From a bacterium (GTDB lineage: Bacteria; JACRDZ01; JAQUKH01): a stretch of DNA of 64,000 nt. The stretch's first letter is position 1. Each line of letters starts with the position of its first letter. The position numbers and the translations under genes are program-made. The stretch covers positions 5,604 to 69,603 of the forward strand of contig JBFMCF010000083.1 of the NCBI GenBank assembly GCA_040754625.1. The letters are read 5' to 3'. Positions 11,122 to 49,863 of this stretch are shown here, piece by piece. The notes under the pieces were generated by a model. That model made no database searches, was not told the DNA's origin, and was given only the letters and a program-made list of their open reading frames with translations.

Positions 11122-12132
11122 ATGGCTGAATTAAATAGAATTTTGGTTTTGGCTGGCGTGATAATTTTTTCTTCTCTGGCGTATTCGCAGGAAACAACGA
11201 CCGTTTTGGATACAACTATTCGGAAACTGGACACTGCAAAAGCAGAACCGTCTCTTCCCGTAAAATGCACACAGGTTATTAATATCGGATATCGTATAGG
11301 GGGCCTGGCTGTTGATTCCAAAGGTAACTATTATGTAAATGGGGGGCGGGGTATAAACGCTGTTACAATTTTTAACCCGATGGGAGAGAAAACAGGAGAT
11401 TTTATTTTGCAGGATGCCCAGATTCCTCCGCCTTCTGAAAACCAGTCGTCGATTAGAGGAATTGATATCGATCTTAATGAGAATATTTACCTTTGTAACG
11501 CAGGTTATAAGACAGTAGAGAAATTTACAAAAATAGGAGATTTTCTTAAAAAGATTTCCCTGCCTGTAAGCCCGAAACCGGAGTGGAATTATGCGCTTGG
11601 AGGTGTGGTTGTTGATGAAGAGGGTACCATCTATGTTGCCGCATACACCAAAATTATATATATTTTTGACAAAGAAGGAAATTTTTTAAGACAGTGGGTA
11701 AAATCGGATAAGGAGAAAGACCAATATGGTTATGTAAGGGCATTGGCGATTGACCGTTATAAAACCTCCAAGCTAAAAAGGATTTATGTGGGCGATGATT
11801 ATACTAACAGAGTTTATGTGTTCACTAAAAAGGAAAGAAAATTACTTTTTTCTTTGGGAAGCCGCGGTTCTAGTCCGGGTGAAATGCTGGATATTACTGA
11901 TTTAGATGTTGACAGTGACGGCAATATTTTTGTGTTGGACCGGGGGATGGGGTATTGTTCGGTTTTTAACAATGAAGGTAAGTTTCTTTTTAGATTCGGC
12001 CAGGGCGATAAATCGGGAGAAAAAAATTTAGCTTTCCCACTGGGTATTTTTATTGACCAGAAGAATAAAATACACATTTCTAATACTGAAAAAGGAAATA
12101 TTTTGGTTTGGGAATGGAGAAAAGATAAATAG
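11122..12132 (+). CDS. Secreted NHL-repeat beta-propeller protein.
   Basis: Signal peptide MAELNRILVLAGVIIFSSLAYSQ. Repeated NHL-like blades (YVGDDYTNRVYVF, IFVLDRGMGYCSVFNNEGKF, IYLCNAGYKTVEKF). First gene of the plus-strand cytochrome operon. Confidence 0.75.
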   Translation: MAELNRILVLAGVIIFSSLAYSQETTTVLDTTIRKLDTAKAEPSLPVKCTQVINIGYRIGGLAVDSKGNYYVNGGRGINAVTIFNPMGEKTGDFILQDAQIPPPSENQSSIRGIDIDLNENIYLCNAGYKTVEKFTKIGDFLKKISLPVSPKPEWNYALGGVVVDEEGTIYVAAYTKIIYIFDKEGNFLRQWVKSDKEKDQYGYVRALAIDRYKTSKLKRIYVGDDYTNRVYVFTKKERKLLFSLGSRGSSPGEMLDITDLDVDSDGNIFVLDRGMGYCSVFNNEGKFLFRFGQGDKSGEKNLAFPLGIFIDQKNKIHISNTEKGNILVWEWRKDK

Positions 12133-16099: not shown

Positions 16100-16171
16100 G
16101 CACGGGCATGAATAATTTTTTATGAAACTTCCCAATAATGTTTTAGGTATATCTGGTTGGATGAGGGGAAA

Positions 16172-19140: not shown

Positions 19141-22100
19141 ATGAGACCTAAAATCTTAAATGATAAAACAGATTTGATATCTTTAATATTTTTATTAATA
19201 TTATCTTTAATCCCCTTTATTTTTATAAAGGCAATAGAAACAACCGATTACCGGCGGACGATGCTTGGCAGTGCCCACGACTTAAACAATCCTGACTCAA
19301 CAGCATCCTGTCTTAATTGTCACTGGATGCATCAAAGAGGCGAGAGGGTGGAAGGTTATTCCCACTCCTTAATAAGCCAATACACGAGAGATGTATGTTT
19401 TGTATGCCACAGCGGTTTAAATCCCAATCTGGAAACGGCCGCTTTAAAGGATTTTGGTTACATTAAACAGGATTTTCTGGATTACAAACCTAAACAATTC
19501 CAGGGAGTGGATACTGTCCATTTTTCCGGCCAGATAGGTAAAAATCCTTATGACATTAAAGCGGAATACGGGGTGGCTACAGCGTCAGCAGCCGGGTCAT
19601 TCCATATGTTTTACAGCACGACCGGTGAATTTAGCGGTATTGACATAAACACATTCAGCTGTTTTGATTGTCATAACCACGGAATTTACGAAAGCACCCT
19701 GGATACCATGGGCGGCAGGCTTCCGAGGCTTATATGGTCAAAAGGGTCTTATGCCAACTTTGGCACTACAATAACCAAAGCAGATAGAAAGGATATTAAT
19801 AAATTTTATGCGACCGAATATTATTGCTTAAGCTGTCATTCCAAGTATGGTTATCCGGATAAATGGAAAACACTGACATGGGATTCCGCGAGGAGACAGC
19901 TCAATGATACATTTTTCCTTGAAACCAGGCATAGCCTTCTCGAACGGTATGGAATACGGTCAGACCTGCCCGCTGGCAGTGTCCCTGAGCCGAGGAACCC
20001 CTACGGATTCGGCAATGATATTTCATGTTTTGTATGCCATTCAAGACACGCCTCAGCGTATCCTTCTCTGATGCGGGGAGATTTTTCAGAAGTTGACATG
20101 TGTATGAATTGTCATTATGGCGCTGCCAGGGACAGTACATATGCTTTTACTTACATACACGAAACAAGCCTGGCAATCAATTACATAACCGCGGGCCATT
20201 ACGCGGATAAAGGGTATTCTTCAATAGGCCATGTTAAGGATATTGCCCTTGGAGGCCCCGGTGTAGTATGTACGGACTGCCATAACCCGCATGGGACCGG
20301 ACATTACAAAATGGTCAAGGGTGTAGTAAAAGATCCCAGGTTTAAAAGAGGCGATACCACTTATGATTCTTCGTATAATCTGGAAACCACTTATTCATAT
20401 ATATATGACCTTGATTCTTTAAAGGCGGTCAGCGGGTTTTGCGGGGGAGCATGCCATAATAAAAATTCTCCTGCAAACTATGAGAGATGGTACGCGCTGG
20501 GTATGGCAAGTTATACCGATTCAGCAACAATGCCAAGCTATTACCGCGGCCTGCCTTTATATGATTCATCTAAACATAAAGGTGTATATAATTCAGTCCA
20601 GACAGCCCCGTTTATTTTGTCAAATTGTTCAGCCTGTCATGACGCGCACGGGACGGTTAATAAGGCCCTTTTATGGCAATCCGAAGAGGAGCTTTGTTTT
20701 CAGTGCCATTTTGAGTCAACAATAGGAGGCGCTCCTGATATTAAAAAGTATTTTGATACGGCTGTTTCCGGCAACCACGCGAGGTCCCATCATCCTATTT
20801 TTGATACGGGAAAAGTAAATGCGGACCAGAGTTCTGTAAGAGCGGTTGAGTGTATTAACTGTCACAACCCCCATCTTGCGACTAAACAATATCCAACAAT
20901 ATATCCTTATAACTGGTCATTGATAAGCGATTATTCCAGTGTTCTGAATACAAATAACAGTACAGACCATGAAAACAGGGCTAAGTTCTGTTCAGCCTGT
21001 CATTCAGAAACATTCCCAAAACTTGATCCAAGAATATATCCATATGGCACAACCTATTCCACTACAATAGCATATCCACCGGGGGTCAGGATTAACGCCA
21101 AACAAATTGGGAATGAATGGTTTGGGGTGCAGGGGAGTGCTATACCTGCTACATTAACATATGTTACTAACGGCCATTTTAAATTTCCGGGCCTTATTGA
21201 CTGTATTAACTGCCACAGCCCGCATGGCTCATCCAATCCGTCGAATATCAGGGATGAAGCATATCTTGACCCAATAGACAGCGCTGTGGACAATTTTATA
21301 AGCAGTGTATATGTTAATTTTGGAAATTACCAGGCTTTTTATAATGAAAATACAAAAATCAGCAGAAAATTCTGCTATACTGCGGATACCGCTGTAACTT
21401 ATGGGTGCCATACACCGCAGTATTTAACCACACAGGTCACTTTCCCGGATAATTTACAACAGGATAGTACCCGGCACAGGACCCGCAGGGTGCCTTTTGG
21501 CCCGATAGATTCTTCGTATTATATTGATGAGCATGATCCATATTGGGATACAAATACAATTAGTGCGGTTCCGCCAAGCGGTATTTTGGGATGTTCTGTC
21601 TGCCATTATCTGGCACATAACCCTACTCCGGATTATTGGTATGTAAATTCCGCGAAAGGTGTTGCGCAGAATTGTTTAGACTGCCATCATCCGGCAGAAA
21701 ACACATATAGTTCCACGACCGCCAAATTTTATGGAGGCGCGCCTACACAATACGAAAGCCCGTATGTGGAGTTTGTTACCTCAGGCGTTTATCCGGTATC
21801 AACTACTTATGTATCCAAACATCTGGCCTCTGCCGGCATTAATGACACAACGAGCAATTATTGTAAACAGTGTCATGGTGAACATGTCCGGCCCACAAGA
21901 ACTAATCCTCCTGTTCGGACAGATGAATATCATGATGTGCCCGGGGGGGGTTTTATCGCAAGCCCGGACACCTCGTTTGGCTATGCAACCACATATCTTG
22001 ACGGCCAGACATTCTGCCTGGCATGCCACAGGGGGGCTTCAAGGTTTGGCGGAAAGATCGCGCCGAATGTTAATGTAACTTATGAAAGCGCCGGGCACGG

Positions 22101-25100
22101 GAGATTAGGAAGGGGCGATACGAGTTCTTCCGATACCACATACGGAATAAAAGTTTATTGTTTTGATTGTCATACAAAACATTCATCTCAAAACCCGAAA
22201 CTTTTGAGGACAAAGATTAGAGATTTAATTACTTACAGCACAAGCGATATATGGACCACTATTGTAAGCAACAGGCAAATCCGGGCGGAAGATCTGGACA
22301 CGGGCTTTAATTATGTATCGGTCAGGACAGTAGGGTACCAGGCTGTATGTTTTGCATGCCATTCGCTCCCCGGTTCAGTTTATGACAGCAGTATATATTA
22401 CCAGAACAATGCCTGGAATTCAAACCCGGGGACTAAGCTCTGGTTAGGAAAGACGGTCTATGAGAGCGCGGGCCACGGAAATACATTTATTACTCCTTAT
22501 GCGTATGTGGATACTGCAGAATACGGAACTACAAAACCTGTAAACGGCGGTATGAAATGTTCGTGGTGTCATGAACCTCACGGCCGCGGGACAGACAGCA
22601 CAGGCGCATTTAACAGTACCTTTAACGACGATATGCTCGAAATCGGGAGCACCACGGAAACAGGAGGAAATATAACTTTATGTTATAAATGCCATAACAA
22701 AGTATTAACTGCCCCCGATAGTTCTTACAGCATTGCAAATATTAAAGCGCTTTTTGATTCAAGTTATTCAATGCATGATATTTATTCGACTGCCACAGAT
22801 ACCAAAGTCACATGTCTTAACTGTCATAACCCGCATACAGGGAATAAAGCATATCCGGTTGTTGTTGCCAATTATAGAACTGATGTAAATGCGGGCGATG
22901 ACGCTTTTTGTATTTCGTGCCATCTTGCGGAGGGGTTAGTGCCGAAATTCAGCAGGGGAAACCCTCCTCCGGATGTTGAGTTCCCTAAAAAGGACGCGCA
23001 GGGAGAAGCCCTTACTGGTTTTGATAAATCCGGTTATACCGCGTCGGCGCACGGCCTTGGCGGTGCCTGGTGCCGGACCTGCCATAAACCTCACGGGACA
23101 ATGAAATTAAAATTGTTAAGAGAAGTTTACGATTTCAACCAGGATGGTCTCCTTGGCGGGCATAGTTATGACACGATTTATACTACAACAAGATATGGAA
23201 CCACAGATTACAGGGAAGAGGATGTATGTTTTGGCTGTCATCGTAACCACGATAATGATGGTGGTGACTGGAACACCGCATGGGCAGGTATCCCGGATGT
23301 CCTCCAGTTTTATCAAATATTTGATACTGTAACAAAGACTTATGGCGAAAGGACCCGTTCTCACCACAATGTTTATCTCGATGAACAGCGCGGGCTGGAC
23401 TCCACATGGGGAACGACGAACGGGGTTATTGACGATACAAGGGTCGAGTGTGAAAGTTGTCATAACCAGCATAAAGCTACAAAATCCCAGCCGCTTACAG
23501 ACCCGGACAGCCCGGATATAATAATGAGCGCATGGGGGGACAGCGGTATATCATTCTGTTTAAGATGCCATGACAATGAGCCTCCCCCGGGGATTACAGG
23601 CCTTACGGATGAAAAATATAAAAATATTCTGAAAGAATATGGAAAACCGGATATAAACGGAATATATCCGAATTTTACAGGCCATTACCGCCAGATAGAC
23701 GGGAAACCTTTAGAGTGCCGTTTATGCCATAGTATGCATGGGTCAAATTATTCTAAACAAATCCAGGATGCCATGGGTTCCGAGCTTGATACTTTCAAGA
23801 TGATGCGTAATATGAGAAGTGTGGCATTAACAGATACATCGCTCGGCGGCAATGACACGCTGGCTTTAAGCACCGTTACCGAGATTTGTTTAAGCTGTCA
23901 CAGCGGAAAATCACAATTCTATGACAGAAACATGCTTGTATGGAGAGATATACCGATAGCTCCTCCGCCGCAGCGGGTGGATTTGTATGTGAATACCGCT
24001 GTATATCACCCGAGATTACTGGATACTTCACTTGACAGTGCTATTTATATTGCTTACGCGGACACGGGGCTTGTCCGGAAAAAGGTAAAATCTGTTTATT
24101 CAACTGTATTTAACATTGATGATACTACCGTGGATGCCGCCGGATGCAACTGCCACGGCGCGCATAATCCTTACAAGGCGGCTTCAAACGAATTTTCTAA
24201 CTGTTTTAACTGCCACAATGGATACGCGGGTATCCCGGACCAGCAAACGCCTTTTGATACAGGTAAATTCAGGGATGGCCCTGCGCCGTTAATAAAAGAC
24301 GATAATACGCTTTTACTGCTCCATTTAAACGGGAGTTATGACGGAGAAAGCAAAGAAGGATCAATTGAAAATACCGGTTTGGCATATGTCGCGGGAAAAT
24401 ATGATCTCGGGCTTTCTTTTCAAACAACATACAGCACTACGAAATTAGCTTATCCGTTGTGGACCACTAAATCCACAGGCGCGCCCGGCCAGATTGGCAG
24501 GGTCCAGCATGTGCAGAGTAACGATTTAACCCTCCGGTTCAACAATACATGCAATGATGAAGATGCGGGAGGCCAAAGATATATTAACAGCCTTTCAACG
24601 GCAACAGGGGTGAGTTATGTAGAAGGTTATATCCCGGGCATTACAGGGGCCGTATATCTTGGAACAGGCAATAACCTGACCTGCAGCACGACCGCGGCCG
24701 GTGTTACGCCGTTGTCCAGCAAGAAAAATATTGATATATCGGATTCCACCAATAACGGGTCGGTCCAGGCATGGGTAAGAATCGACGATCCCGGGACAGG
24801 AATACAGGATACGACAACGGATAGATATATATTCATTCACGCGACTACAAGCGCAGAACCTTTTAAAAACGCAATTTTCCTCCGGCATTCCAATTTTAAT
24901 ACATGGGACATAGGCGTAAGCGATGAAACAGGAGTCCAATATAATATAGTGTCCGCAAAGGATGAATTAACAGCAGGCTGGCACCATATAGCAGGAACAT
25001 GGTCGAAGGCCGATAAACAATTAAAAATATATATTGACGGGGTATTGGTCGCGTCTGAAGGGGCGTTGTTTTTCCCTAAATATACAAGCACGACATTCCG

Positions 25101-28100
25101 TATAGGTTCTTCGAGTGCTGCCGCAGGCGCGATAAATACCGCCCTTGATGAATTCCAGATTTCAAATAACACAAAACCCGGTGCTGAAATTTTAGCTGAT
25201 TACAATGGGGAAAATGAAATGAATTTCAGCGCAAGAAGAGGGACCCTGGCGTTCTGGGTAAAACCGTATTGGAATGGAAATGATAGTGAAGATCATACCT
25301 TTTTTGAAAGCAATTATGATACCAATAACTATTTCAGGCTCCAGAAAACAAGCGCCAATAATTTAACGTTTACAATAAGAGGCAGGGCCGCGTCACCGGT
25401 TGCTGTCTCTTACTCAGTTAATGATACCGCCACCCTGCCGGCAGGCATCTGGTCGCATATCGCGGCTTCATGGGAAGATTTTGATTCAAGCCGCTCGAAA
25501 ATGAAGCTGTATTTAAATGGCATACAGGTGAATAGCATAGATACCGCCACAATGATGGTATATACAGATACCGCTTTTTATATCGGGTCTCTCGAGAACG
25601 GCACGCAGTCGGTAAAAGCGGCCATGGATGAGGTTTGGATAACAGATATTATGCAGGATACTTCTATTATTTCATCCATATATGCTACTTTAAGCAATAC
25701 AGGCACAGGTTCAACCACAAGCCCGACAGAAAGTTACCTGCCGAACCCTACAAGTTTAACTTTGTTATTGTCTTATGATACTACATACAATGGGGCGAGT
25801 GGGGAACAGGCTTTGAATACGAGTAATATTTCGCGTGTAAGCGGAAAATTTGACAGCGGCTTGTCAATCAGCGGGAACGGCACCATAAGTTATTTGTCAG
25901 GAAATGGTTATTCGTCATTGGCCCTGGCCAATGGTTTTAATAACAGCCTTGGGATAGGTGTCCTTGATTCAACCGGGCCTATTACATGGACACAGGGATT
26001 CTTAGGCGGCACGGCCGGCGGCGTTTTAATTGATTCATCAGATGTATTAAGCTACAACAATAATACATTTTTAATTTATTATTATTATAATGACGGGACC
26101 GGTATTATGAAATTGGCCTGCAAGGAAACGATTAATTCCACCCCGCCGGATTCAACTAATCTTGGTTCTCAATTCTTATTGGGAATCGGTTCCGGCAGTT
26201 CGGACCAGGCCCAGGCCCCTGATATAATAAAACTTAGTGACGAGAGATACAGGATTTACTATGGATATTCTTTTAGTTATTACCAATTAGCATATAAGGA
26301 GACTATTAATACAAACCTGCCTGATTCAACCAGCCTTGGGTCGCGCCAGTTGTTAGGGATAGGGTCGTCTTTATCAGACCGGGCGAACGGCCCTAATATT
26401 ATAAAGCTTGATAACGGGAAATACAGGATTTATTATTTTTACAATGATGGGACATATACGCAGTTAGCTTACAAGGAAACCAGTGATACAAACCCGCCGG
26501 TAATAACTAATATTGGTTACCGACAGTTATTAGGTGTCGGTGATTCTATTACAAATCAGGCACAGAGTCCGAGTATTATAAGACTCCCCGATAATAAATA
26601 TAGAATATATTACGCTTATAACAACAATACCTTTGCACAACTGGCTTATAGGGAAACGAATGATACAAATGCGCCGGATTCCACTAACATTGGTTCCCAG
26701 CAGTTATTAGGTACAGGAACGTCTGCCAATGACCGTGCGAATGCCCCATATATAATACAACTTTCAAATGGATACTACAGGATTTATTACCAATATTATA
26801 ATGGGAGTTATTGGCAGTTGGCTTATAAACAAACAAGTAATGCCAATGCACCGGATTCATCAAATACTTATAGCCAGCCGCGGATTACGATAGCGACAGG
26901 GGGTTATAGCACTGCCCAGGCATACGAACCAAGTGTTGTCCCGAAGAATAAAATAAATGCGAAAAACGGGACTATCCAGGTCTGGGTCAATATTAATTCA
27001 GGTATTAAAGATACGGGGAGCAGAAGATATATTGTCCGGTCAACGTTTGATACATCTGCCGCTGACCCAAATAATAGTCTGGCGCTCTTTCACGATACTG
27101 ATGCAGCATGGAAATTTACTTCAAGAAATTCAACAACGACAAGCACTGTTTCTATAGCGGATAATCTTTCTTATGGCTGGCACAATTTTGCGGCAACATG
27201 GGACACCTCCGCCCTGAAATTATATATTGACGGTGAACTGCAGAATTCAGTATCAAGTCCAAACCTGCCGGACAGCACGGCAAGCCGTTATTATGTCGGG
27301 TGCGGCGGGGGAAGCGGCCAGATTAATACCGCGCTTGATGAATTGCTGATCGATGGAGCGGCAAAAACCCAGAGCGAGATTCGGACAAACATTCAGGCTT
27401 CAAGCTATAATTTCAACCCTGTTTCCGGGACCGTTGAGATGTGGATGAAGCCGATAAACTGGACAGGGACAGATACGACAAAACAACACTATTTATTTGA
27501 CGCCCATAATAACAGCCTCACAAAGGACCGTGTTTCATTATATTATGACACAACGAAAGAGATTAAGTTCGATGTTTACTCGTCAACAGGGGTTTTAAGA
27601 AGCGCTAAAATAGATGTAAGCACATTTTTGGATTCAACGACATTCCGTCATTACGCGGGCACGTGGGACCAGTATAGTGTGAATTTATATATAAACGGTA
27701 TACTGGCGGGCGATACCGCTTACACGGCAGTGTCCGACCAGAGGGCGGTCAATTTATCAATCGGAAGCAGCGCAAGAATAACAGGCCAGGCAGACGCCAT
27801 AATCGATGAGGTCAGGATATTTGATGTCCTGCGCGACGATGCCGCGATTAAGGCGGACGCGGGCGGAGTATATGATTATAAAATGTATTTCGCGAATAGT
27901 TTTGATCCTTATGACGGCGGGAGCCGCCACCCGATAAATATGGAGAGCGATGCCTTTGATTCGAGTTTTGGGACGGATGTATCAAAAATGGAATGTTTGA
28001 AATGCCATCTCCAGCTTGAAAATGACACAACTTTATATCACAGGAGAACAGGCGGGCTTATAAAATTTGTTAACGTGGACAGCAGTATGGTCTGGAACCA

Positions 28101-31100
28101 GCGAACGTGGAAGTATGATAACAGCACAAAAGCAAATGTTACTAAATTCTGTTTGTCCTGTCATATGAGGCCGGACATCAATTTTGACACAATTACAAAT
28201 TTAGGGGCCTCCGGATACACCTTCAGCGGTTCTTCTCCTGCTTATGGAGGGAAACCAGTCCAGCTAAGACCGTTAGACAGTACCGATACACCGGTATCAA
28301 AACCGGGTGGTGGAGTTTATTATCCGATAGATACTGCATCAGCCCATTTTGACTCAAGCTTCGGGTCAACCGCTGTCGGCGGGTTAAGCTGTACAGATTG
28401 TCATGACCCGCACGGGTCGATCAATAAGTCGATGCTGCAGGACTTCGAGGAGGCCAAGGAACAGAAAGATTATAACCGTGACGGGATAATGGCCCGCGAG
28501 ATACAATATCTGGATAAGGAAAATGTCCGGCTGTATCAATTAAATGAAGAGAAATTCTGTTACTTCTGCCATAACGGGAGATTCAATACCACAGGCGTGA
28601 ACCCGCCGGGAAGCATTCCGGGCGACCCGCTTTACTGGAAGATGAAGGACATTGAAAGTAAATTCGCATACCAGGGTGCCCATCATATGGTAGATGACGT
28701 GGAACAGGACGCGAATGATGTCAGGATAGAATGCACAAATTGCCATAACCCGCATACCGCGAAGAGAGATGCGGTTGTTCTTAACCCGCTGACAGGACAA
28801 AGGGCTTATGTAACTGCCACGGTCCTTATGAATACTTTTTGCGTAGGATGCCATGGTGACAGCACAATCAGTAATGTGATCCCGACCACGTGGGATGAGG
28901 GTATAAAATTCCCCGGGTCCATGATAAACAGGCCTGTCCCGGAATGGACCGGCAATTTATGGAATAAGTTCAATAAACAGTCAATGACTTCAGGAAATAA
29001 GCATTTCCAGAATGTTGAATGTGCGGCATGTCATGACCCGCATGGAACAAGCAACTACCGGCTGTTAAGTGAAACTGTTTTAAATAGATATACGGCCCTT
29101 GGCGGCAGCCCGTCAAGCCCGTCAACTACAAATGTCTACGGCCTGCAGTTAATGCTTCAACCCAAGCCCGACGGCAGGAAACGTTATGAGGTATACAGCA
29201 CAACCTATGGCACGGTTGTCACAAATTACAGCATTAACAGATTCTGTTTTGGGTGTCATAATAAACCGTATGGATACGACCCTGATTACGCGAGCAGTTA
29301 TATTTACCCCGGAGAAACCTGCTACAGCCAGTGGGATTTCGGGGTTGTAGACAGTTCATCGCAATGGACAAATTTTACAAAATACGATTCTATAATGACT
29401 GTGGGCGGCGCTTATAAATATATAGCGCCCGATGTTTATGGAAAAGATAAAGATTGTGATTACTGTCATAATCCTCATGGTTCAGATTCCACCCGTATAC
29501 GCATGGTGCGGGACAATGTTCCGCAGGATCTGGACAGGAACTCGCAGACCTTCGGGGACCGTGTTGACAGCGCAATGTGGTTCCAGGACGGTTATCCTGC
29601 TACTGGAGTGGATTTCTGCCTCAGCAGGGGATGCCATGTTACGAATCGTTTTGCCAAATTGGGGCCAAGAGATCCAAATTATGTTCCTGGCGGGATGTCA
29701 ACATGGTGGACTAAACCCTATGACCAGTTCAATTTGCTTACATATGGCACGTATGGCGCGTTGCCATTTTCCAGTATAAGACCGGGAAGCTTTAAACCGG
29801 ATGGTATAGCATATACTACCGCGCGGGCGTCAAAACACCCGATAATGCCTTACGATGATTTTATAAACCAGGGAAATACGTTGATTTGTTTATCATGCCA
29901 TACACCGCACGGTTCGCCCGGGAATACCGGATTGGCCGCGAGTTACGGCAGTAATTATGAGTCCACTTATCCCCAGGACGCCGCCGGGCTTCGCCGCGCG
30001 TATTATAGAAGAATATATTGGTGGCCTGTAACCTTCTGGAAACGAAGCAGTCCGGCCGACATTGCAATCGGGCATGCCTATGGCGGCACTCCTTCTAATA
30101 ATCAGTTTGCAAATTTCGCAAATTTTAATTATGATTATGATGTCAACACCCTCCTGCAAAACGACGCATATTACTCACTTTTTGTCACCCGCAGAATAAC
30201 AACATATTATAATCTTTATGGGACCCAGGAGATGCATCCTGATGGTGCAGTAGGCACAGAAAATCCTATGCGATACGGTGAAAAAGTTTTTAATCAGAAT
30301 ATTCCCTCGGCCGGAAATGATCTTTGCTATATGTGCCATCCTATGCCGGAAATTGCAGGAGCTACCGGCTGGCCTGAGACTACTTACATAGGAATTGATA
30401 CCACAAAAACCCGTTTTGTAGGCCATGAGGCGGTAATAGGCGGTTCAAAAATAGGAGAGACTAAATTCGGGACAGGGAGCTCGGTAGGGAATATGGGCCT
30501 TAATCTTAGAACGTTCATCGTCCGGAGTGATTTTCATAAATTTACATGTTCAATGTGCCATGGCCCGCACGCCGCTACAAATGAAAAATTATTGACCAAC
30601 AAATGTTATGCTTATAATTTCCGGAAACCGCCGACACTTGACACTCACGGTAATGATGTAGATAACAGGGGCCGTCCTTCCGTATATTGCCATCCTTATG
30701 ACAATACAGGCCCGACAAACTGGAATTACAAAGTTAACTGGAAGGACACCGAGCCTGGAACAACATTCGTCGGGTGGAGAAATATGGTTGACACCACGAA
30801 GATGGATTTTGACAGGCCGCCGAACAGCATAGATACATTGTTTGTATATTTTAATACAACCGGTGTTTACGATACGAATACGGTAATTCCCGGGCTGAGT
30901 AATCTTTATGTAACATCCAGTGATTTTGATGTTGTCCTCGCATGGAGGTCCGTCTATGACAGTACAAGATGGATTGACCATTATAACGTATATCGCGGAG
31001 AGACTACACTTACCCAGGCAAATAAGGCCTATAAGACCAACCCGCCGGGTGTTACCATTAAAACATGGCCGGGATGGAATTACAGCTTTGTAAGCCGCAT

Positions 31101-34100
31101 TTATGACAGCAATCTTACACGGCCGACCGGGGAATTTAATACATTATATACCATTGACCCGTCTTTTGCCCATACCCTTGGAAAAAAATATTATTATATT
31201 GTGGCCCCCGCGGATTCTTTTAATAATGAGGCGCTGACACCAAACTGCCAGGATACAGCAGGGTCTTATTACACAAGCACCAATACCGTTGCTCCAAGGC
31301 CGGTTACCGCCTTGAGCCTGACCCAGGAGACATACGACAGCGGAGGTTTTAATTTCAAGATGCGTTTTATCTGGCAGGACCCGGGGGATAATATAGCTAC
31401 TAAAAATTATTCTTTATACTATAAAATAATAGATACTGCCCAGTTTAATCCAAGTTATTCTTCGCTTAGCGCTTATTTGACTGATTATATTGTAACTGTA
31501 ACTGATACAAGCTTCAATACGGATATAATTTCTGCAATAAATTTCGGAGATTATTATGTTACTACTCATGCAAATGAAAGTACAATGGATTCAGACGCGG
31601 TAGTTCAAAGGAAAGTATATGTTTTAGGCATAAAGCCGGCCGATAATCAAAATAACACCGCGTCTCTTTACAGCATAAAATATATAAGAATAGCAGATCC
31701 TGTTCCATCCATGATAACTGATTTGAAAGCAAGGCCGGATATAACGGCTAATCTGACTGATACTACAAATAATAGATATAATGTCAGATTAGAATGGTCG
31801 GTCCCATGGGATAATGCTCAAAGCATAGAGTCTGCTTCTATCCCGATATACAAGATTTACCGTAAACTTAACGATCCTATTAACCAGATTGAGCTGAATA
31901 CCTATAATTTGATAGACACTGCATTGACAACTATTGAAAATATAGCGGTTTTAACCGCCTATAATTCCGTGGCCCTTTCTCAATATAATTTTGGAAACGT
32001 TATTACGTATACGGATAATGTTGAGCCGAATAAGGTATATTATTATGCTGTAACCTCAATAGATAAATACGCGACTGCCGCGGCAAATCTCGCAGACACT
32101 GTTTATGGTTATACCACCGACCGCGCGGGCAGGTTATACCGTGAACAAATATTGCCGGGTTATAATACTAAACTACTTAGCCCTTTAAGCAGTAAATTTA
32201 AAACGGTAAAGTCAAATACTTCTTTCAGGTTCTCATTTAATGAAGCCACCTATGAAACAGCCTATTTTAAAGAATACAGGTTCTATGAACGTTTTGAAAC
32301 GGACAGGGCCTGGAGGTTTAATTCCACTTATTTTGAAACTGCAATGATTCACGCGACCACTTCTGTCTGCTGGACGCCGGGTTCGGGCTGTCATGATGAC
32401 AGGCTGAGTCACGGAGATACCTCAGAGTGCAGGGTTTGCCACCAGGGTAACGCGCGGGGCAGGCTTGATATAGATACCACTTATCCTGTAGGGACTTATT
32501 ATTTTGCAGGTTCAATTGTTTATAATAGCGTCCGGATCATTATTGATGGAAGGCCGGCAACGGTCAATAACCTGGAATCACCTTTGAATGAAATAGCATC
32601 ATTGACCGTTTACGATTTGATTCCTCCATCTCCGTTTAATTATTTAAATTACACACTTGTGCCGGAAAGGGAAAACGGTTACGATAGTGTCAGGCTCTCG
32701 TGGTCCGGAGGACGGGATACGACTAATTTCCAGAATTATATAATCAAGTACCGTCCCGAAATGGCACCCTACAACCAGTGGTTAAGCAGTTCATGGGTAA
32801 CGCAGGACACCACAGTAATTAATACCTATCAAACCACCTGGACGGCACTGTATCCTACGCCGGACAGCCGATGGCAGTCTAGTCTGGCCCAGCCTAAATA
32901 CGGCGATTTTATTTATAGATATGAAATACAGGCCTGGGATTCAGATTATAATTATTCGTCAATAAGTACTCAGATATCGACACGTCCGCCGTCCGGTGTT
33001 GTAGGCCCTGGTTTTAATTTGCAGGGACTGGCAGGACCTGAAATCAGGTTAAGCTGGACAAATATGTATAACCTCTCGTATGGAACAGATTATTCAGCGA
33101 CAATAGGAGGATATAAACTTTATGCAAAAGAAACGGCCGGCACAATAGACCACATTTTTTACGGGACAACACTTAACATTGATACCGCTTATGGTATTAA
33201 TTTGATAAAGACCATGACTCCGATACTTGATACTACAGCGTGGCCGCAGGGTAACCAGGCACTTAATTGTTATGTTACTGCAAGCAGCAACCAGCCTTAC
33301 GCGTCGAACGCAAACGATGGAAGCTTAGCGTCACTGTGGCTTGCTGATGCTTATGATACGTTCTCGACAACATATATTATGTTTGATTTAGGTGCAAGAA
33401 AAGAAATAGCCACCATAACATATAATAATTCTATTGAAGGAATTAGTTTTGCGGTGGATAGTACCGATAGTTCCCAGGGTTATACTATATTGGTCGCTGA
33501 TACAAACATGGTTTGGGAAACAGTTGTTTCTAAACCTGTAAATACCCCGAGGGGCGAAGTTGCATGGCCGAGAACAGGAGCTCTAACACCGATTCAATAC
33601 ATAATGGTAACCAATTTCAGCAGTTACGCCACTGATAATATTTCGGGAGCTGTAACTGAATTAAAGGCAAACTATCCGTCAGATACAACTACGACCGTGT
33701 TTAACCATGCAAATAATAATCCCTTGTTCAAGGCCCTTATCGGCCGCAGGTATGCCTATGGTATATATTTAGAAGATACAACAAGCGCCAAGAGCCGGTC
33801 GGCGTTTACAGGATCATCCTATTTAGTGCAGGATATTAACAGGCCGTATTCGGTTATTGACCTGGCGGCATACGGCTCAGGCAAGGACAATTACATACGT
33901 CTGAAATGGTCAAAACCGTACGATGATTCCGGAGGTATCGCACGTTATGAAGTATGGCGCAGGGAAGATAACCCGGACATTGTAGATAATAACGGATATG
34001 ATTTCAATAAAAATGTGCGTCTCAGTTCAACATACACGACTGAATTTTATACGGACACAAGTACTCTTTCATCAAGCCCGTACTGGTATGCAATTTGTGC

Positions 34101-35808
34101 GGTAGATTCTACCGGGAACAGGTCTCTTTTTGCGGGTAAAAACTATTCAGTTTCTGCTACAAAAGGAAAAAATAAGGACACAACGCCGCCCGAACCGACA
34201 GTTTTGCAAAAACTTGATTACAGGAAAGTCAGGGACGGCGGCCCGGATGTTACTCTTGGCTGGAAGAGCACAAAAGATAAAAAAGATTACGACACGCTTG
34301 GCCAGGAGGACACTACTTTATATCCGATACCTTCAGATTCAACAATAGGGATCTCTATATATTCGATTTATAAGGTGGATTACGCACTGGATTCCACTCC
34401 TTTTGCCAATGAACTTGAATTGCTTGGCAGAAACACTTTTAACAGCGGCTATTCAACCACCCTGGGAGTTGTAGCTGATGGATGGAAGGCCGGGACATGG
34501 GGGTCGACTAATGTATTGGCAAGTATTGACAGCACGTTGTCAAGCCCTGCCCAGAAACTGAATATTTATAATTATAACGGTGATCCAAATGAACAAATAA
34601 CAGCTAATCCAAAGTATGTCAGGAGCGCGGCATACCTTAAAACAACAGGCTACACATTTGAGACCTCAAGATACATTATCAGCGGCATGGAAACAGCAAC
34701 TACGCATTATATATTTGGTTTATGGTTAAAAGCGGAAGGCCAGTTTGTGGCCCAGTACCCGGGTAATGTTTATGTTGATATAGCAACTAAATTAAATTCC
34801 GGAAATGAGTCAACTTATACCTTAATAGCGAGGAGGACAATTAAAAAACCCGGCTACAACTGGAAGTATTATATACTCAATTTTGTGACTCCGACAAGCG
34901 GCCTGGATTCTACAAATGAAAATGGTATTATGATTTGGGGAAATAATGACGGGAACATATGGATGGACAGCGCCAGACTGACATATCTGGGAAGACCGAC
35001 AATAAGAAAACCTGAAACTACAACAGTTGACATGGATGTCTCGGCAAACCAGAATTATGTTTATGCCGTGACTGCCGTGGATTACCTTGCGGATAATAAC
35101 CCGGATGACGGTTTTATCTATGACGGAAATGAGGGTGATTTTGAGAGCAGTATGATGATTGGTACTGATGAAAGAGAACCGTATTTTGATTCCGCGTATG
35201 AATCAATATGGGACAGTACGCCGTGGCTTATGCTTACTAATCCCGCCCGTGTATTTAAAACCGGCACCACTCCTACTATATCTTTTATGGAAGGTGCGAC
35301 CCCGACTGATTATGTAACGGTTCAGTATGGAGGTAACGGGCTTATTTTTGATTCTGATAATATATTTAAAAACGGTGATTTTGTGAGTTTTAAAATGAAA
35401 ATTATGGACCCGGTTACGAACCTGCCTGATACGACTATTTTGCAGGGAATAGGTTTTCTATATGTTGATTACAGCAGGCTGGATGTTACACGGTGGGGTG
35501 TTTATTCACCTGTCCCGCTTGGCGACGGGGAATACAAATACTATTTTAGAATCAGCACGGATGATTATCTATATTACACGGCGGGAATACCACAACTGCC
35601 GGACACACCCTATAATACTGCCACAGGCATGTATGAAAGCTTATCCAAGATTGTCATTTACGCTGTAGATAAAATGGGGAATGGGCCGTATTTTGACGAT
35701 ACTACCGGACTTGATACAACAGATAATAATCCGGACACTACTTATCGGTGTATACTTGATAATGAAGTCACGGATGCGCCCGGCAGCCCCGGAGGAGAGG
35801 AACCATAA
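19141..35808 (+). CDS. Giant secreted multiheme c-type cytochrome (5555 aa, about 45 heme-binding motifs) with four LamG-like lectin domains, five tandem 59-aa repeats, multiple FN3-like modules and a discoidin (F5/8 type C)-like domain.
   Basis: ATG at 19141 with a GGGGG Shine-Dalgarno sequence. Signal/TM LISLIFLLILSLIPFIFI. About 30 CxxCH in residues 57-1690 and about 13 more in residues ~2950-3810, plus CRVCH near residue 4430. LamG-like blocks end in NTALDEFQISNN and NTALDELLIDG. FN3-like Y/W-rich beta-sandwich modules in the C-terminal third. Confidence 0.85.
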   Translation: MRPKILNDKTDLISLIFLLILSLIPFIFIKAIETTDYRRTMLGSAHDLNNPDSTASCLNCHWMHQRGERVEGYSHSLISQYTRDVCFVCHSGLNPNLETAALKDFGYIKQDFLDYKPKQFQGVDTVHFSGQIGKNPYDIKAEYGVATASAAGSFHMFYSTTGEFSGIDINTFSCFDCHNHGIYESTLDTMGGRLPRLIWSKGSYANFGTTITKADRKDINKFYATEYYCLSCHSKYGYPDKWKTLTWDSARRQLNDTFFLETRHSLLERYGIRSDLPAGSVPEPRNPYGFGNDISCFVCHSRHASAYPSLMRGDFSEVDMCMNCHYGAARDSTYAFTYIHETSLAINYITAGHYADKGYSSIGHVKDIALGGPGVVCTDCHNPHGTGHYKMVKGVVKDPRFKRGDTTYDSSYNLETTYSYIYDLDSLKAVSGFCGGACHNKNSPANYERWYALGMASYTDSATMPSYYRGLPLYDSSKHKGVYNSVQTAPFILSNCSACHDAHGTVNKALLWQSEEELCFQCHFESTIGGAPDIKKYFDTAVSGNHARSHHPIFDTGKVNADQSSVRAVECINCHNPHLATKQYPTIYPYNWSLISDYSSVLNTNNSTDHENRAKFCSACHSETFPKLDPRIYPYGTTYSTTIAYPPGVRINAKQIGNEWFGVQGSAIPATLTYVTNGHFKFPGLIDCINCHSPHGSSNPSNIRDEAYLDPIDSAVDNFISSVYVNFGNYQAFYNENTKISRKFCYTADTAVTYGCHTPQYLTTQVTFPDNLQQDSTRHRTRRVPFGPIDSSYYIDEHDPYWDTNTISAVPPSGILGCSVCHYLAHNPTPDYWYVNSAKGVAQNCLDCHHPAENTYSSTTAKFYGGAPTQYESPYVEFVTSGVYPVSTTYVSKHLASAGINDTTSNYCKQCHGEHVRPTRTNPPVRTDEYHDVPGGGFIASPDTSFGYATTYLDGQTFCLACHRGASRFGGKIAPNVNVTYESAGHGRLGRGDTSSSDTTYGIKVYCFDCHTKHSSQNPKLLRTKIRDLITYSTSDIWTTIVSNRQIRAEDLDTGFNYVSVRTVGYQAVCFACHSLPGSVYDSSIYYQNNAWNSNPGTKLWLGKTVYESAGHGNTFITPYAYVDTAEYGTTKPVNGGMKCSWCHEPHGRGTDSTGAFNSTFNDDMLEIGSTTETGGNITLCYKCHNKVLTAPDSSYSIANIKALFDSSYSMHDIYSTATDTKVTCLNCHNPHTGNKAYPVVVANYRTDVNAGDDAFCISCHLAEGLVPKFSRGNPPPDVEFPKKDAQGEALTGFDKSGYTASAHGLGGAWCRTCHKPHGTMKLKLLREVYDFNQDGLLGGHSYDTIYTTTRYGTTDYREEDVCFGCHRNHDNDGGDWNTAWAGIPDVLQFYQIFDTVTKTYGERTRSHHNVYLDEQRGLDSTWGTTNGVIDDTRVECESCHNQHKATKSQPLTDPDSPDIIMSAWGDSGISFCLRCHDNEPPPGITGLTDEKYKNILKEYGKPDINGIYPNFTGHYRQIDGKPLECRLCHSMHGSNYSKQIQDAMGSELDTFKMMRNMRSVALTDTSLGGNDTLALSTVTEICLSCHSGKSQFYDRNMLVWRDIPIAPPPQRVDLYVNTAVYHPRLLDTSLDSAIYIAYADTGLVRKKVKSVYSTVFNIDDTTVDAAGCNCHGAHNPYKAASNEFSNCFNCHNGYAGIPDQQTPFDTGKFRDGPAPLIKDDNTLLLLHLNGSYDGESKEGSIENTGLAYVAGKYDLGLSFQTTYSTTKLAYPLWTTKSTGAPGQIGRVQHVQSNDLTLRFNNTCNDEDAGGQRYINSLSTATGVSYVEGYIPGITGAVYLGTGNNLTCSTTAAGVTPLSSKKNIDISDSTNNGSVQAWVRIDDPGTGIQDTTTDRYIFIHATTSAEPFKNAIFLRHSNFNTWDIGVSDETGVQYNIVSAKDELTAGWHHIAGTWSKADKQLKIYIDGVLVASEGALFFPKYTSTTFRIGSSSAAAGAINTALDEFQISNNTKPGAEILADYNGENEMNFSARRGTLAFWVKPYWNGNDSEDHTFFESNYDTNNYFRLQKTSANNLTFTIRGRAASPVAVSYSVNDTATLPAGIWSHIAASWEDFDSSRSKMKLYLNGIQVNSIDTATMMVYTDTAFYIGSLENGTQSVKAAMDEVWITDIMQDTSIISSIYATLSNTGTGSTTSPTESYLPNPTSLTLLLSYDTTYNGASGEQALNTSNISRVSGKFDSGLSISGNGTISYLSGNGYSSLALANGFNNSLGIGVLDSTGPITWTQGFLGGTAGGVLIDSSDVLSYNNNTFLIYYYYNDGTGIMKLACKETINSTPPDSTNLGSQFLLGIGSGSSDQAQAPDIIKLSDERYRIYYGYSFSYYQLAYKETINTNLPDSTSLGSRQLLGIGSSLSDRANGPNIIKLDNGKYRIYYFYNDGTYTQLAYKETSDTNPPVITNIGYRQLLGVGDSITNQAQSPSIIRLPDNKYRIYYAYNNNTFAQLAYRETNDTNAPDSTNIGSQQLLGTGTSANDRANAPYIIQLSNGYYRIYYQYYNGSYWQLAYKQTSNANAPDSSNTYSQPRITIATGGYSTAQAYEPSVVPKNKINAKNGTIQVWVNINSGIKDTGSRRYIVRSTFDTSAADPNNSLALFHDTDAAWKFTSRNSTTTSTVSIADNLSYGWHNFAATWDTSALKLYIDGELQNSVSSPNLPDSTASRYYVGCGGGSGQINTALDELLIDGAAKTQSEIRTNIQASSYNFNPVSGTVEMWMKPINWTGTDTTKQHYLFDAHNNSLTKDRVSLYYDTTKEIKFDVYSSTGVLRSAKIDVSTFLDSTTFRHYAGTWDQYSVNLYINGILAGDTAYTAVSDQRAVNLSIGSSARITGQADAIIDEVRIFDVLRDDAAIKADAGGVYDYKMYFANSFDPYDGGSRHPINMESDAFDSSFGTDVSKMECLKCHLQLENDTTLYHRRTGGLIKFVNVDSSMVWNQRTWKYDNSTKANVTKFCLSCHMRPDINFDTITNLGASGYTFSGSSPAYGGKPVQLRPLDSTDTPVSKPGGGVYYPIDTASAHFDSSFGSTAVGGLSCTDCHDPHGSINKSMLQDFEEAKEQKDYNRDGIMAREIQYLDKENVRLYQLNEEKFCYFCHNGRFNTTGVNPPGSIPGDPLYWKMKDIESKFAYQGAHHMVDDVEQDANDVRIECTNCHNPHTAKRDAVVLNPLTGQRAYVTATVLMNTFCVGCHGDSTISNVIPTTWDEGIKFPGSMINRPVPEWTGNLWNKFNKQSMTSGNKHFQNVECAACHDPHGTSNYRLLSETVLNRYTALGGSPSSPSTTNVYGLQLMLQPKPDGRKRYEVYSTTYGTVVTNYSINRFCFGCHNKPYGYDPDYASSYIYPGETCYSQWDFGVVDSSSQWTNFTKYDSIMTVGGAYKYIAPDVYGKDKDCDYCHNPHGSDSTRIRMVRDNVPQDLDRNSQTFGDRVDSAMWFQDGYPATGVDFCLSRGCHVTNRFAKLGPRDPNYVPGGMSTWWTKPYDQFNLLTYGTYGALPFSSIRPGSFKPDGIAYTTARASKHPIMPYDDFINQGNTLICLSCHTPHGSPGNTGLAASYGSNYESTYPQDAAGLRRAYYRRIYWWPVTFWKRSSPADIAIGHAYGGTPSNNQFANFANFNYDYDVNTLLQNDAYYSLFVTRRITTYYNLYGTQEMHPDGAVGTENPMRYGEKVFNQNIPSAGNDLCYMCHPMPEIAGATGWPETTYIGIDTTKTRFVGHEAVIGGSKIGETKFGTGSSVGNMGLNLRTFIVRSDFHKFTCSMCHGPHAATNEKLLTNKCYAYNFRKPPTLDTHGNDVDNRGRPSVYCHPYDNTGPTNWNYKVNWKDTEPGTTFVGWRNMVDTTKMDFDRPPNSIDTLFVYFNTTGVYDTNTVIPGLSNLYVTSSDFDVVLAWRSVYDSTRWIDHYNVYRGETTLTQANKAYKTNPPGVTIKTWPGWNYSFVSRIYDSNLTRPTGEFNTLYTIDPSFAHTLGKKYYYIVAPADSFNNEALTPNCQDTAGSYYTSTNTVAPRPVTALSLTQETYDSGGFNFKMRFIWQDPGDNIATKNYSLYYKIIDTAQFNPSYSSLSAYLTDYIVTVTDTSFNTDIISAINFGDYYVTTHANESTMDSDAVVQRKVYVLGIKPADNQNNTASLYSIKYIRIADPVPSMITDLKARPDITANLTDTTNNRYNVRLEWSVPWDNAQSIESASIPIYKIYRKLNDPINQIELNTYNLIDTALTTIENIAVLTAYNSVALSQYNFGNVITYTDNVEPNKVYYYAVTSIDKYATAAANLADTVYGYTTDRAGRLYREQILPGYNTKLLSPLSSKFKTVKSNTSFRFSFNEATYETAYFKEYRFYERFETDRAWRFNSTYFETAMIHATTSVCWTPGSGCHDDRLSHGDTSECRVCHQGNARGRLDIDTTYPVGTYYFAGSIVYNSVRIIIDGRPATVNNLESPLNEIASLTVYDLIPPSPFNYLNYTLVPERENGYDSVRLSWSGGRDTTNFQNYIIKYRPEMAPYNQWLSSSWVTQDTTVINTYQTTWTALYPTPDSRWQSSLAQPKYGDFIYRYEIQAWDSDYNYSSISTQISTRPPSGVVGPGFNLQGLAGPEIRLSWTNMYNLSYGTDYSATIGGYKLYAKETAGTIDHIFYGTTLNIDTAYGINLIKTMTPILDTTAWPQGNQALNCYVTASSNQPYASNANDGSLASLWLADAYDTFSTTYIMFDLGARKEIATITYNNSIEGISFAVDSTDSSQGYTILVADTNMVWETVVSKPVNTPRGEVAWPRTGALTPIQYIMVTNFSSYATDNISGAVTELKANYPSDTTTTVFNHANNNPLFKALIGRRYAYGIYLEDTTSAKSRSAFTGSSYLVQDINRPYSVIDLAAYGSGKDNYIRLKWSKPYDDSGGIARYEVWRREDNPDIVDNNGYDFNKNVRLSSTYTTEFYTDTSTLSSSPYWYAICAVDSTGNRSLFAGKNYSVSATKGKNKDTTPPEPTVLQKLDYRKVRDGGPDVTLGWKSTKDKKDYDTLGQEDTTLYPIPSDSTIGISIYSIYKVDYALDSTPFANELELLGRNTFNSGYSTTLGVVADGWKAGTWGSTNVLASIDSTLSSPAQKLNIYNYNGDPNEQITANPKYVRSAAYLKTTGYTFETSRYIISGMETATTHYIFGLWLKAEGQFVAQYPGNVYVDIATKLNSGNESTYTLIARRTIKKPGYNWKYYILNFVTPTSGLDSTNENGIMIWGNNDGNIWMDSARLTYLGRPTIRKPETTTVDMDVSANQNYVYAVTAVDYLADNNPDDGFIYDGNEGDFESSMMIGTDEREPYFDSAYESIWDSTPWLMLTNPARVFKTGTTPTISFMEGATPTDYVTVQYGGNGLIFDSDNIFKNGDFVSFKMKIMDPVTNLPDTTILQGIGFLYVDYSRLDVTRWGVYSPVPLGDGEYKYYFRISTDDYLYYTAGIPQLPDTPYNTATGMYESLSKIVIYAVDKMGNGPYFDDTTGLDTTDNNPDTTYRCILDNEVTDAPGSPGGEEP
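19309..24216 (+). other. Heme-rich region 1 of the 5555-aa protein (about 30 CxxCH/CxxxCH motifs from CLNCH to CFNCH).
   Basis: Motif positions read directly from the translation and DNA: tgtcttaattgtcac at 19309 and tgttttaactgccac at about 24201. Confidence 0.8.
24755..25650 (+). other. Two consecutive LamG/concanavalin-A-like lectin domains (Laminin_G_3-like) in the 5555-aa protein.
   Basis: SVQAWVRIDD...WHHIAGTWSKADKQLKIYIDGVLVA...INTALDEFQISNN, then LAFWVKPYW...WSHIAASWED...MKLYLNGIQV...MDEVWITD. Confidence 0.6.
26020..26990 (+). repeat. Five tandem, diverged 177-bp (59-aa) repeats, consensus LAYKET-x-x-TN-x-PDSTNLGS-x-QLLGIGSS-x-SDRA-x-AP-x-IIKL-x-x-x-x-YRIYY-x-YN, inside the 5555-aa ORF.
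   Basis: Repeat units start at about 26115, 26284, 26461, 26641 and 26818. Protein-level identity between units is roughly 50-60%. Confidence 0.8.
26965..27825 (+). other. Third and fourth LamG/concanavalin-like domains of the 5555-aa protein.
   Basis: GTIQVWVNINSG...WHNFAATWDTSALKLYIDGEL...INTALDELLIDG and GTVEMWMKPINW...YAGTWDQYSVNLYINGIL...IDEVRIFD. Confidence 0.6.
27990..30565 (+). other. Heme-rich region 2 of the 5555-aa protein (about 13 motifs from CLKCH to CSMCH, including the CX4CH variant CLSRGCH).
   Basis: CLKCH, CLSCH x2, CTDCH, CYFCH, CTNCH, CVGCH, CAACH, CFGCH, CDYCH, CLSRGCH, CYMCH, CSMCH. Confidence 0.8.
33260..33520 (+). other. Discoidin (F5/8 type C)-like carbohydrate-binding domain within the FN3-rich C-terminal third of the 5555-aa protein.
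   Basis: LNCYVTASSNQPYASNANDGSLASLWLADAYDTFSTTYIMFDLGARKEIATITYNN matches the discoidin pattern (A-S-S..., DG...T-W, DLG...I). Confidence 0.45.
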
Positions 35809-35848: not shown

Positions 35849-35867
35849 TTTAGTGAGGTATAATGTA

Positions 35868-45249: not shown

Positions 45250-45392
45250 AGTCCATGTGTGACTTTTTTTTGAAGGTTTTGCCTGATTTTTGCGGAATTA
45301 ATCCGCCTAAGGCTGAGACTAAAGCAAAAAATCAGACAAAACCTACAAATATCTTAAAATTAGTCGCACACACAGCGTAAACCTGATAAAAA

Positions 45393-49781: not shown

Positions 49782-49807
49782 TTCAATATCCCAAACCCCT
49801 CTTTATC

Positions 49808-49855: not shown

Positions 49856-49863
49856 TATGGGGG

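Follow-up and report, generated by a model that had tools for sequence, protein, structure and literature searches.

How might a cytochrome wire that works outside the cell also hold on to the object to which it is wired? Large extracellular multihaem cytochromes are the hardware with which microorganisms exchange electrons with minerals, electrodes and partner cells, and to our knowledge it is poorly understood how these wires locate and hold their targets. The question is raised in a concrete form by a stretch of bacterial DNA, 64,000 nucleotides long and analysed here as a whole (the window: GenBank assembly GCA_040754625.1, contig JBFMCF010000083.1, positions 5,604 to 69,603 of the forward strand), in which a single gene encodes a 5555-residue multihaem cytochrome that also contains LamG, β-propeller, FN3-like and discoidin-like modules. 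By comparing this protein with its relatives, we find that an older scaffold has received a cassette of LamG domains and a predicted propeller between two neighbouring haem sites, and we use this architecture to weigh what the protein may do.

A giant multihaem cytochrome in one reading frame

The gene for this giant c-type cytochrome occupies positions 19141..35808 of the window (+ strand), a complete open reading frame (ORF) in which 5555 codons follow one another from an ATG start without an internal stop; a GGGGGA Shine-Dalgarno-like site lies ~8 nt 5′ of the start. The NCBI entry MEW6088100.1 ('MAG: cytochrome c3 family protein [bacterium]', where MAG is a metagenome-assembled genome, from a 72.9-kb contig) is identical to the translated protein, and our search of the literature found no publication on it. 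The protein contains 42 CxxCH motifs and three variants (CxxxCH, Cx4CH and Cx6CH), which amounts to ~45 haem sites, whereas its own cysteine and histidine content would lead one to expect ~0.05 CxxCH motifs by chance.

These motifs are distributed over two long blocks and one small module. Haem block 1 (residues 34–1706; 19240..24258, +) holds 29 CxxCH and the CxxxCH (residue 434) between residues 57 and 1688, and haem block 2 (residues 2919–3890; 27895..30810, +) holds 12 CxxCH and the Cx4CH (residue 3493) between residues 2952 and 3803. A preliminary description of the window, made from its letters and translated reading frames, had counted ~30 and ~13 motifs, and these counts are exact when the variants are included (30 and 13); to them is added a further pair at residues 4410–4434 (32368-32442, +). 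This pair, a Cx6CH (residue 4410) and a CxxCH (residue 4430), belongs to a small haem module (residues 4330–4491; 32128..32613, +) that has no Pfam match. It lies 627 residues past the preceding haem motif, is kept in the ortholog P0006, and is missing from the distant relatives P0002–P0005; both groups of relatives are introduced below.

Over both haem blocks, Pfam recognizes Paired_CXXCH_1 (169.9 bits, cut-off 20.6; E = 8e-51), MtrC/MtrF domain II/IV (MtrC-MtrF_II-IV, 98.4 bits, cut-off 30; E = 4.5e-28) and the cytochrome c7 and c3 families (Cytochrome_C7, 73.1 bits, cut-off 24.8), all of them well over their cut-offs. The preliminary description had spoken of one uninterrupted 16.7-kb frame of 5555 codons and of a single multihaem cytochrome polypeptide; the ATG start, the absence of stops and the identical NCBI entry bear out the former, and the motif count together with the curated cytochrome families bears out the latter. 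Ahead of haem block 1, the sequence and a hydrophobicity scan reveal a hydrophobic helix (residues ~10–33; 19141..19239, +), a putative Sec signal peptide or signal anchor, and P0002–P0004 have a classical signal peptide at the matching position. Because the region of this helix contains no cysteine, the protein is not a lipoprotein.

A cassette between two consecutive haem sites

We compared the protein's architecture with that of its relatives. A homolog search over 5.8 billion proteins returned only four full-length distant relatives (P0002–P0005), and a second search added the fragments P0007 and P0008. The full-length relatives are 3958–4178 residues long, with 44 CxxCH each and an N-terminal signal peptide, and all six distant relatives carry precomputed fn3 or discoidin Pfam matches; a literature search turned up no publication describing the family formed by P0002–P0005. 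Aligned by BLASTP, the 44-CxxCH relatives are collinear with residues 38–1706, 2919–4391 and 4593–5088 of the 5555-residue protein. The junction is sharpest in P0003, whose residues 1227–1705 align to residues 1220–1706 and whose residues 1707–2695 align to residues 2919–4320. The haem motifs that flank this junction are 47 residues apart in P0003 (1687 and 1734) and 1264 residues apart in the 5555-residue protein (1688 and 2952), and block 2 contains the same 12+1 motifs in both proteins. Because the relatives are collinear with both haem blocks and yet lack residues 1707–2918 (24259..27894, +), we conclude from these alignments that this 1212-residue cassette was inserted into an older scaffold, at a point where one haem site directly followed another. 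The location of LamG domains and repeats between the two haem blocks, as first described, is thereby confirmed as the result of a true insertion. If the haem chain is continuous across the insertion, then the cassette must loop out of it, with its two ends close together.

The ~4000-residue family shares with the 5555-residue protein its collinear haem blocks 1 and 2 (the latter with 12+1 motifs), its FN3 modules, an FN3 module split by a discoidin domain and a second large cytochrome encoded directly upstream; each of its members has an N-terminal signal sequence. In contrast, its members are only 22–30% identical to the 5555-residue protein, and they lack the cassette, the haem pair at residues 4410–4434 and the conserved C-terminal domain.

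The cassette consists, in order, of two LamG domains, a five-bladed β-propeller and two further LamG domains. Scanned alone against the Pfam gathering score for Laminin_G_3 (PF13385; 27.6 bits), each LamG domain exceeds it: LamG 1 (residues 1868–2017; 24742..25191, +) with 62.6 bits, LamG 2 (residues 2029–2169; 25225..25647, +) with 66.5 bits, LamG 3 (residues 2601–2747; 26941..27381, +) with 54.0 bits and LamG 4 (residues 2750–2903; 27388..27849, +) with 68.4 bits. All four LamG-like domains of the preliminary description therefore stand, at 54.0–68.4 bits. LamG 3 and LamG 4 also give weak matches to glycoside hydrolase (GH) family GH16.

Between the two LamG pairs, a chunked self-comparison resolves five 59-residue repeats (residues ~2299–2604) that are pairwise 47–57% identical. 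The repeats had been noted before and are real; we now assign them to the blades of a single five-bladed β-propeller (residues ~2305–2615; 26053..26985, +). At the DNA level, Tandem Repeats Finder reports no tandem repeats in the ORF, and it misses the 59-residue repeats because they are too diverged in DNA. The propeller domain itself has no Pfam match. A profile of the propeller family matches solved five-bladed enzymes of families GH130, GH117, GH32 and GH43 (E from 1e-6 to 1e-3), and an AlphaFold2 model built from a 51-sequence alignment is confident (pLDDT 83.9, pTM 0.81); compared with five-bladed glycoside hydrolases, the propeller matches in fold, at 7–17% sequence identity. Because of the profile matches to solved propellers and this confident model, we identify the 59-residue repeats as propeller blades.

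Searched exhaustively with HMMER, 1.84 billion representatives yielded 115 proteins with the propeller repeat (P0009–P0123; homologs of window 25951-27000). These form a rare, unannotated family without a Pfam model, whose repeat accompanies LamG in surface proteins. Among 17 homologs scanned, 13 have no Pfam family at all, including the nine closest relatives, and in the four with Pfam annotation no enzyme family falls on the propeller; two scanned proteins carry Laminin_G_3, and one of these (P0016) begins with a type IV pilin-like N_methyl motif. Giant proteins with multiple propellers are frequent in the family, and in large haem-free proteins the repeat has Laminin_G_3, He_PIG and FN3 domains as neighbours. 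Among the 44 best matches checked, CxxCH motifs are absent from all but P0027, which has four. Judged by this sequence kinship, the haem-free relatives with the same propeller repeat point to a cassette of adhesin type.

Closer relatives form a small clade, in which the contents of the protein vary. The assembly L001 (Logan SRR22388020) contains a 5′-truncated ortholog (P0006), 51% identical to residues 3001–5546, behind which lie homologs of the two window genes that come next (72% and 67% identity). The MAG JBDROR01 ('bacterium'), a GTDB genome, encodes two shorter versions, L002 and L003. They match residues ~1671/1869–2308, then 2600–3891, then 5340–5547, with haem block 2 being 56–57% identical in each, and L002 is followed by homologs of the window genes at 43354–47771 (68–82% identity). 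The three proteins, 51–57% identical to the 5555-residue protein, have the same haem block 2 and the same C-terminal domain; L002 and P0006 have syntenic downstream genes, and in L002 and L003 a LamG cassette occupies the same site. However, in L002 and L003 a further (fifth) canonical LamG domain takes the propeller's place and the 1450-residue FN3/CBM32 tail is missing; the long haem block 1 is missing too, at least from L003. Evidently, to judge by these alignments, modules have been exchanged within the clade. Because the sister MAG has a LamG domain in the same slot, the propeller's function would be replaceable by that of a binding-type domain.

One of the shorter versions is unusual in its own right. 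In L003 (1–8638; contig JBDROR010000044.1), a homolog of the 18-CxxCH cytochrome encoded in the window (residues 587–1311) continues into the LamG cassette, haem block 2 and the C-terminal domain, with a frame change near 1611–1664; two adjacent genes, or one fused gene with a sequencing error, would account for this. The JGI metagenomes that we scanned contain no further LamG cytochromes, only haem-free LamG proteins.

A nested C-terminal tail

We iterated a hidden Markov model (HMM) from the most canonical FN3-like module in the tail, and it delineates seven such modules, of which five are intact and two are split by insertions. Modules 1–3 (residues 3913–4045, 4048–4188 and 4195–4329; 30877..32127, +) are matched with E values of 5e-14, 9e-11 and 1e-16, module 4 (residues 4492–4619; 32614..32997, +) with 5e-12, and module 6, the most canonical (residues 4898–5009; 33832..34167, +), with 4e-21. 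The same iterated model places module 5 at residues 4613–4897 (32977..33831, +), where it is split by a discoidin/CBM32-like insert, and module 7 at residues 5012–5335 (34174..35145, +), where it is split by an insert of ~200 residues (~5095–5295) that has no Pfam match. For module 7, the model matches the C-terminal half (residues 5258–5322), and both halves are evident in the ortholog.

The similarity to FN3 is found by profiles. The Pfam model fn3 (PF00041) has no match at E ≤ 1 in any piece of the last 1700 residues, but a profile built only from the 5555-residue protein and its ortholog matches the FN3 domain of chitinase A1 (1k85; E = 1.9e-5), and most of the 41 PDB matches of the FN3 profile (E ≤ 1) are FN3-bearing chains, including insulin receptor, neogenin, DSCAM and titin. 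The preliminary description had listed about 8 FN3-like modules; the kinship holds at profile level, but the count is seven, two of them with nested insertions. The discoidin-like domain that it had also listed is marginal but consistent. Scanned alone, the domain scores 28.2 bits against PF22633 at residues 4723–4804 (cut-off 27.8) and 24.8 bits against PF00754, under the cut-off of 28.2, and a profile of the region matches the CBM32 domain of AlyQ (7d29; E = 8e-4). In P0002 and P0008, an FN3 module is split in the same way and aligns to the discoidin region of the 5555-residue protein, and P0002–P0008 carry precomputed PF00754 (discoidin) matches. At the level of profiles, the tail thus has seven FN3-like modules and one discoidin/CBM32-like domain; for residues 4480–5555, AlphaFold2 with a four-sequence alignment gave a pLDDT of 33. 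The tail is nested, with the CBM32-like and ~200-residue domains located inside FN3 modules, in the same manner as the cassette is located inside the haem chain.

The protein ends in a conserved domain (residues 5336–5555; 35146..35805, +) with the invariant terminal motif DTTY[RQ]CILD. All four clade members keep this domain, including L002 and L003, which have no FN3 tail. It has neither a Pfam match nor, by profile, a PDB match, and its role may be to anchor or sort the protein. A type IX secretion tail was considered for the protein and dropped when NCBIfam found no sorting signal.

Neighbouring genes

The gene for the 5555-residue protein is part of a string of + strand genes that starts at 11122. 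The string begins with an NHL/six-bladed β-propeller protein (336 residues; 11122..12132, +), continues with an 18-CxxCH cytochrome that has two additional CxxxCH motifs (1314 residues; 12155..16099, +) and reaches a 14-CxxCH cytochrome (986 residues; 16157..19117, +) directly 5′ of the giant gene. The gaps at these upstream cytochromes are 58 nt and 24 nt, and the NHL, 18-CxxCH and 14-CxxCH genes probably form one transcription unit with the giant gene. Downstream lies a haem-free FN3-like/Big_1/TPR protein (1342 residues; 35853..39881, +; 72% identical in L001), containing three modules matched by the FN3 HMM (residues 23–135, 136–252 and 366–475), Big_1/invasin domains and a C-terminal TPR region that resembles YbgF/BamD. 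A ResB-like (System II) cytochrome c biogenesis gene (40250..41560, +; 67% identical in L001) follows 369 nt past the 1342-residue gene, 4.4 kb downstream of the 5555-residue gene, and has MoaA, MoaC and MOSC genes after it. The ORF adjoining it (41557-42345) has no match to the CcsA/ResC family, and its only matches are weak and Ig-like.

Upstream and divergent from the string is a second giant cytochrome (2838 residues; 2366..10882, −), with 22 CxxCH motifs in its first 940 residues, Glucodextran_B/Big_13 domains, a right-handed β-helix/NosD-like region and a C-terminal SPOR (peptidoglycan-binding) domain. Its gene contains a 103-nt direct repeat (2989-3091 and 3178-3280) with 87% identity between the copies. 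Further along the window, three PMT_2 (ArnT/dolichyl-phosphate-mannose-type) glycosyltransferase genes at 48444-53571 (−), with a CarboxypepD_reg-domain gene between the first two, may act in glycosylating envelope or surface proteins. An AbiEii nucleotidyltransferase toxin gene (63011-63766, +) is overlapped by an unannotated upstream ORF (62260-63045), which is likely its antitoxin.

Relation to known cytochromes

Multihaem cytochromes with 40–49 haems per protein have been described from Ignavibacteria, Geobacter and Burkholderiales (PMC7399161), those with up to 63 haem motifs among the extracellular cytochromes of PCC3 (PMC5566968), and those with up to 116 in peat metagenomes (bioRxiv 10.64898/2026.05.27.727921). 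The preliminary description had ranked the 5555-residue protein among the largest cytochromes known. For the number of haems this does not hold, given the published values of 63 and 116; for polypeptide length it may, as the protein is the longest of the few relatives found and may be near the top in length. Like the very large multihaem cytochromes of these studies, which are read as molecular wires for extracellular electron transfer (PMC5566968; PMC7399161; bioRxiv 10.64898/2026.05.27.727921), it carries dozens of haems on one polypeptide. Unlike it, the published ones are haem-dense, low-complexity wires (PMC5566968). Non-cytochrome domains grafted onto multihaem cytochromes have been discussed mainly as terminal fusions, for example in flavocytochrome c3 (bioRxiv 10.1101/2025.05.29.656830), and in the literature that we searched, no haem chain is described as containing LamG, discoidin or propeller modules.

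In its MtrC/MtrF domain II/IV and Paired_CXXCH_1 similarity, the protein resembles MtrC, OmcA and MtrF of Shewanella, but it exceeds them in length by a factor of more than eight, and the nearby genes include no recognised MtrAB-type porin or periplasmic partner. MtrC, OmcA and MtrF are surface-exposed electron conduits whose haem domains are interleaved with β-rich non-haem domains. The locus also differs from the Mtr, Pcc and PCC3 porin–cytochrome complexes, no porin family having been found in the 26 neighbouring ORFs covered by the Pfam scan, and the haem blocks differ from the OmcS, OmcE and OmcZ nanowires in having no sequence similarity to the solved filament subunits. For want of a close solved relative of the haem blocks, there is no support for assigning the protein to the MtrC/OmcA or nanowire families, although it is proposed to work on the principle that they use. 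From the five-bladed glycoside hydrolases (GH43, GH62, GH32/68, GH117, GH130 and GH159), the propeller is set apart by its 7–17% identity, its near-identical blades and its lack of a Pfam match. The protein belongs to an undescribed giant-cytochrome scaffold; it carries a swappable cassette of lectin-type domains in the middle of its haem chain and ends in an FN3/CBM tail of nested modules.

Proposed function and alternatives

We give slightly better than an even chance to the reading that the protein is an extracellular electron conduit with binding modules, a wire plus a grip. The protein would be exported by Sec and then loaded with ~45 haems, a ResB-like gene being close by. Its two haem blocks would pack into one continuous chain of ~43 haems, a continuity that we assume, and the cassette would loop out sideways from this chain. 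Located at or beyond the cell surface, with three other large cytochromes encoded nearby, the protein would move respiratory electrons to or from an insoluble partner. LamG, propeller, CBM32 and FN3 domains are the kinds of module by which secreted bacterial proteins bind glycans or act as spacers; here, they would fasten the wire to a glycan-rich or solid target, and we consider particulate organic matter, minerals coated with polymer, partner cells, and the envelope or matrix of the cell itself as candidates for it. Substrate or surface binding coupled to electron transfer, which the preliminary description had suggested, is thus a putative role read from the types of domain present.

Several observations weigh against an extracellular conduit of this kind. 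When the haem blocks were compared by phmmer with all PDB sequences, there was a single marginal match, to the Mtr-type structure 6r2q_A (E = 0.008), and none to block 2. The haem pair at residues 4410–4434 lies behind three FN3 modules, with no obvious electronic link to the main chain. NCBIfam gave no match to a T9SS, PEP-CTERM or other sorting signal, and nothing at all over the last 1700 residues; in the 26 neighbouring ORFs, several of which have no family assigned, Pfam recognised neither a porin nor a secretion system. The SPOR domain of the 22-CxxCH cytochrome also fits a periplasmic or wall-associated site. Finally, the ComM protein of the window shares 87% identity with its counterpart in another unclassified MAG, and only 63–67% with those of named groups (Edwardsbacteria, KSB1 and Thermodesulfobacteriota); a placement of the host in Ignavibacteriota has no support.

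The same failure to find a porin, secretion or sorting signal (26 ORFs in Pfam; NCBIfam), the SPOR domain at the C-terminus of the neighbouring cytochrome, and a C-terminal domain, retained by every paralog, that could serve as an anchor would suit a protein that stays in the envelope, as a periplasmic or wall-embedded electron store or relay. Its haems would then work as a capacitor or as an envelope-spanning wire, and its modules as spacers that anchor it to the cell's own peptidoglycan or envelope glycans. We consider this placement unlikely: FN3, CBM32, LamG and Big_1 modules typically occur in proteins that are secreted or exposed at the surface, the relatives of the propeller–LamG cassette include a pilin-type protein, and 5555 residues is very large for the periplasm, although none of these points is decisive. 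Redox-assisted degradation of a polymer is a second alternative, in which the propeller would be catalytically active, as a glycosidase or phosphorylase of GH43/GH130 type, and the haems would supply or remove electrons for attacking polysaccharide or particulate organic matter oxidatively. The propeller's fold match to glycoside hydrolases and the weak GH16 matches of LamG 3 and LamG 4 agree with such an enzyme, but its identity to the enzymes is only 7–17%, its blades are near-identical (47–57%) where those of enzymes are differentiated, and a LamG domain fills its slot in the sister MAG. A strand-initial 'DP' is typical of five-bladed GH propeller enzymes; the blades read AP, GP or SP at this strand start, which is suggestive. 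An enzymatic role is, on this balance, very unlikely.

Both alternatives, like the reading as an extracellular conduit, take the gene to be real. A chimeric metagenome assembly, or a gene-calling artefact, could have fused two or more genes in frame: the source is a MAG contig, paralogous cytochromes with common haem-motif DNA are nearby, both propeller junctions (residues ~2305 and ~2600) are seen in this contig alone, and a similar gene in the related MAG has a frame change. Such a fusion is nevertheless barely credible. The 16.7-kb frame is open in DNA of ~43% G+C, the G+C content and its third-position value (GC3) are even over all modules, and the longest direct repeat inside or around the ORF is at most 56 nt. 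The assembly L001 is independent of the present one, and its ortholog is collinear with residues 3001–5546. L002 and L003 have the same junctions 1671→2305 and 2600→3891, and share with the 5555-residue protein the transitions from haem block 1 to LamG, from LamG to haem block 2 and from the tail to the C-terminal domain; the distant relatives, in turn, are collinear with both haem blocks and with part of the tail. Because of the independent collinear ortholog, the junctions shared with a related MAG and the absence of long DNA repeats, we conclude that the gene is intact and that an in-frame assembly error, a concern already raised in the preliminary description, is unlikely.

If the protein is an extracellular conduit, the cassette could do more than fasten it. 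It may be a functional break-out point, where binding to a specific glycan-bearing target, such as particulate organic matter, the envelope of a partner cell or a mineral coated with exopolymer, positions or conformationally gates the haem chain in mid-length and where the swappable slot module sets the specificity; we regard this added role as quite unlikely.

Implications

By its position between neighbouring haem sites, the cassette shows that a long haem chain tolerates an insertion of more than 1200 residues of binding-type domains, and comparison within the clade shows that the content of such a cassette is exchanged between relatives. The protein is also a clear example from nature of a multihaem cytochrome that has taken up non-cytochrome domains internally, not by fusion at a terminus. 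It thereby provides a testable system for asking whether the recognition of glycans or surfaces is physically coupled to electron transfer, and, if gating by the cassette were true, the result would be a targeted, ligand-dependent form of extracellular electron transfer.

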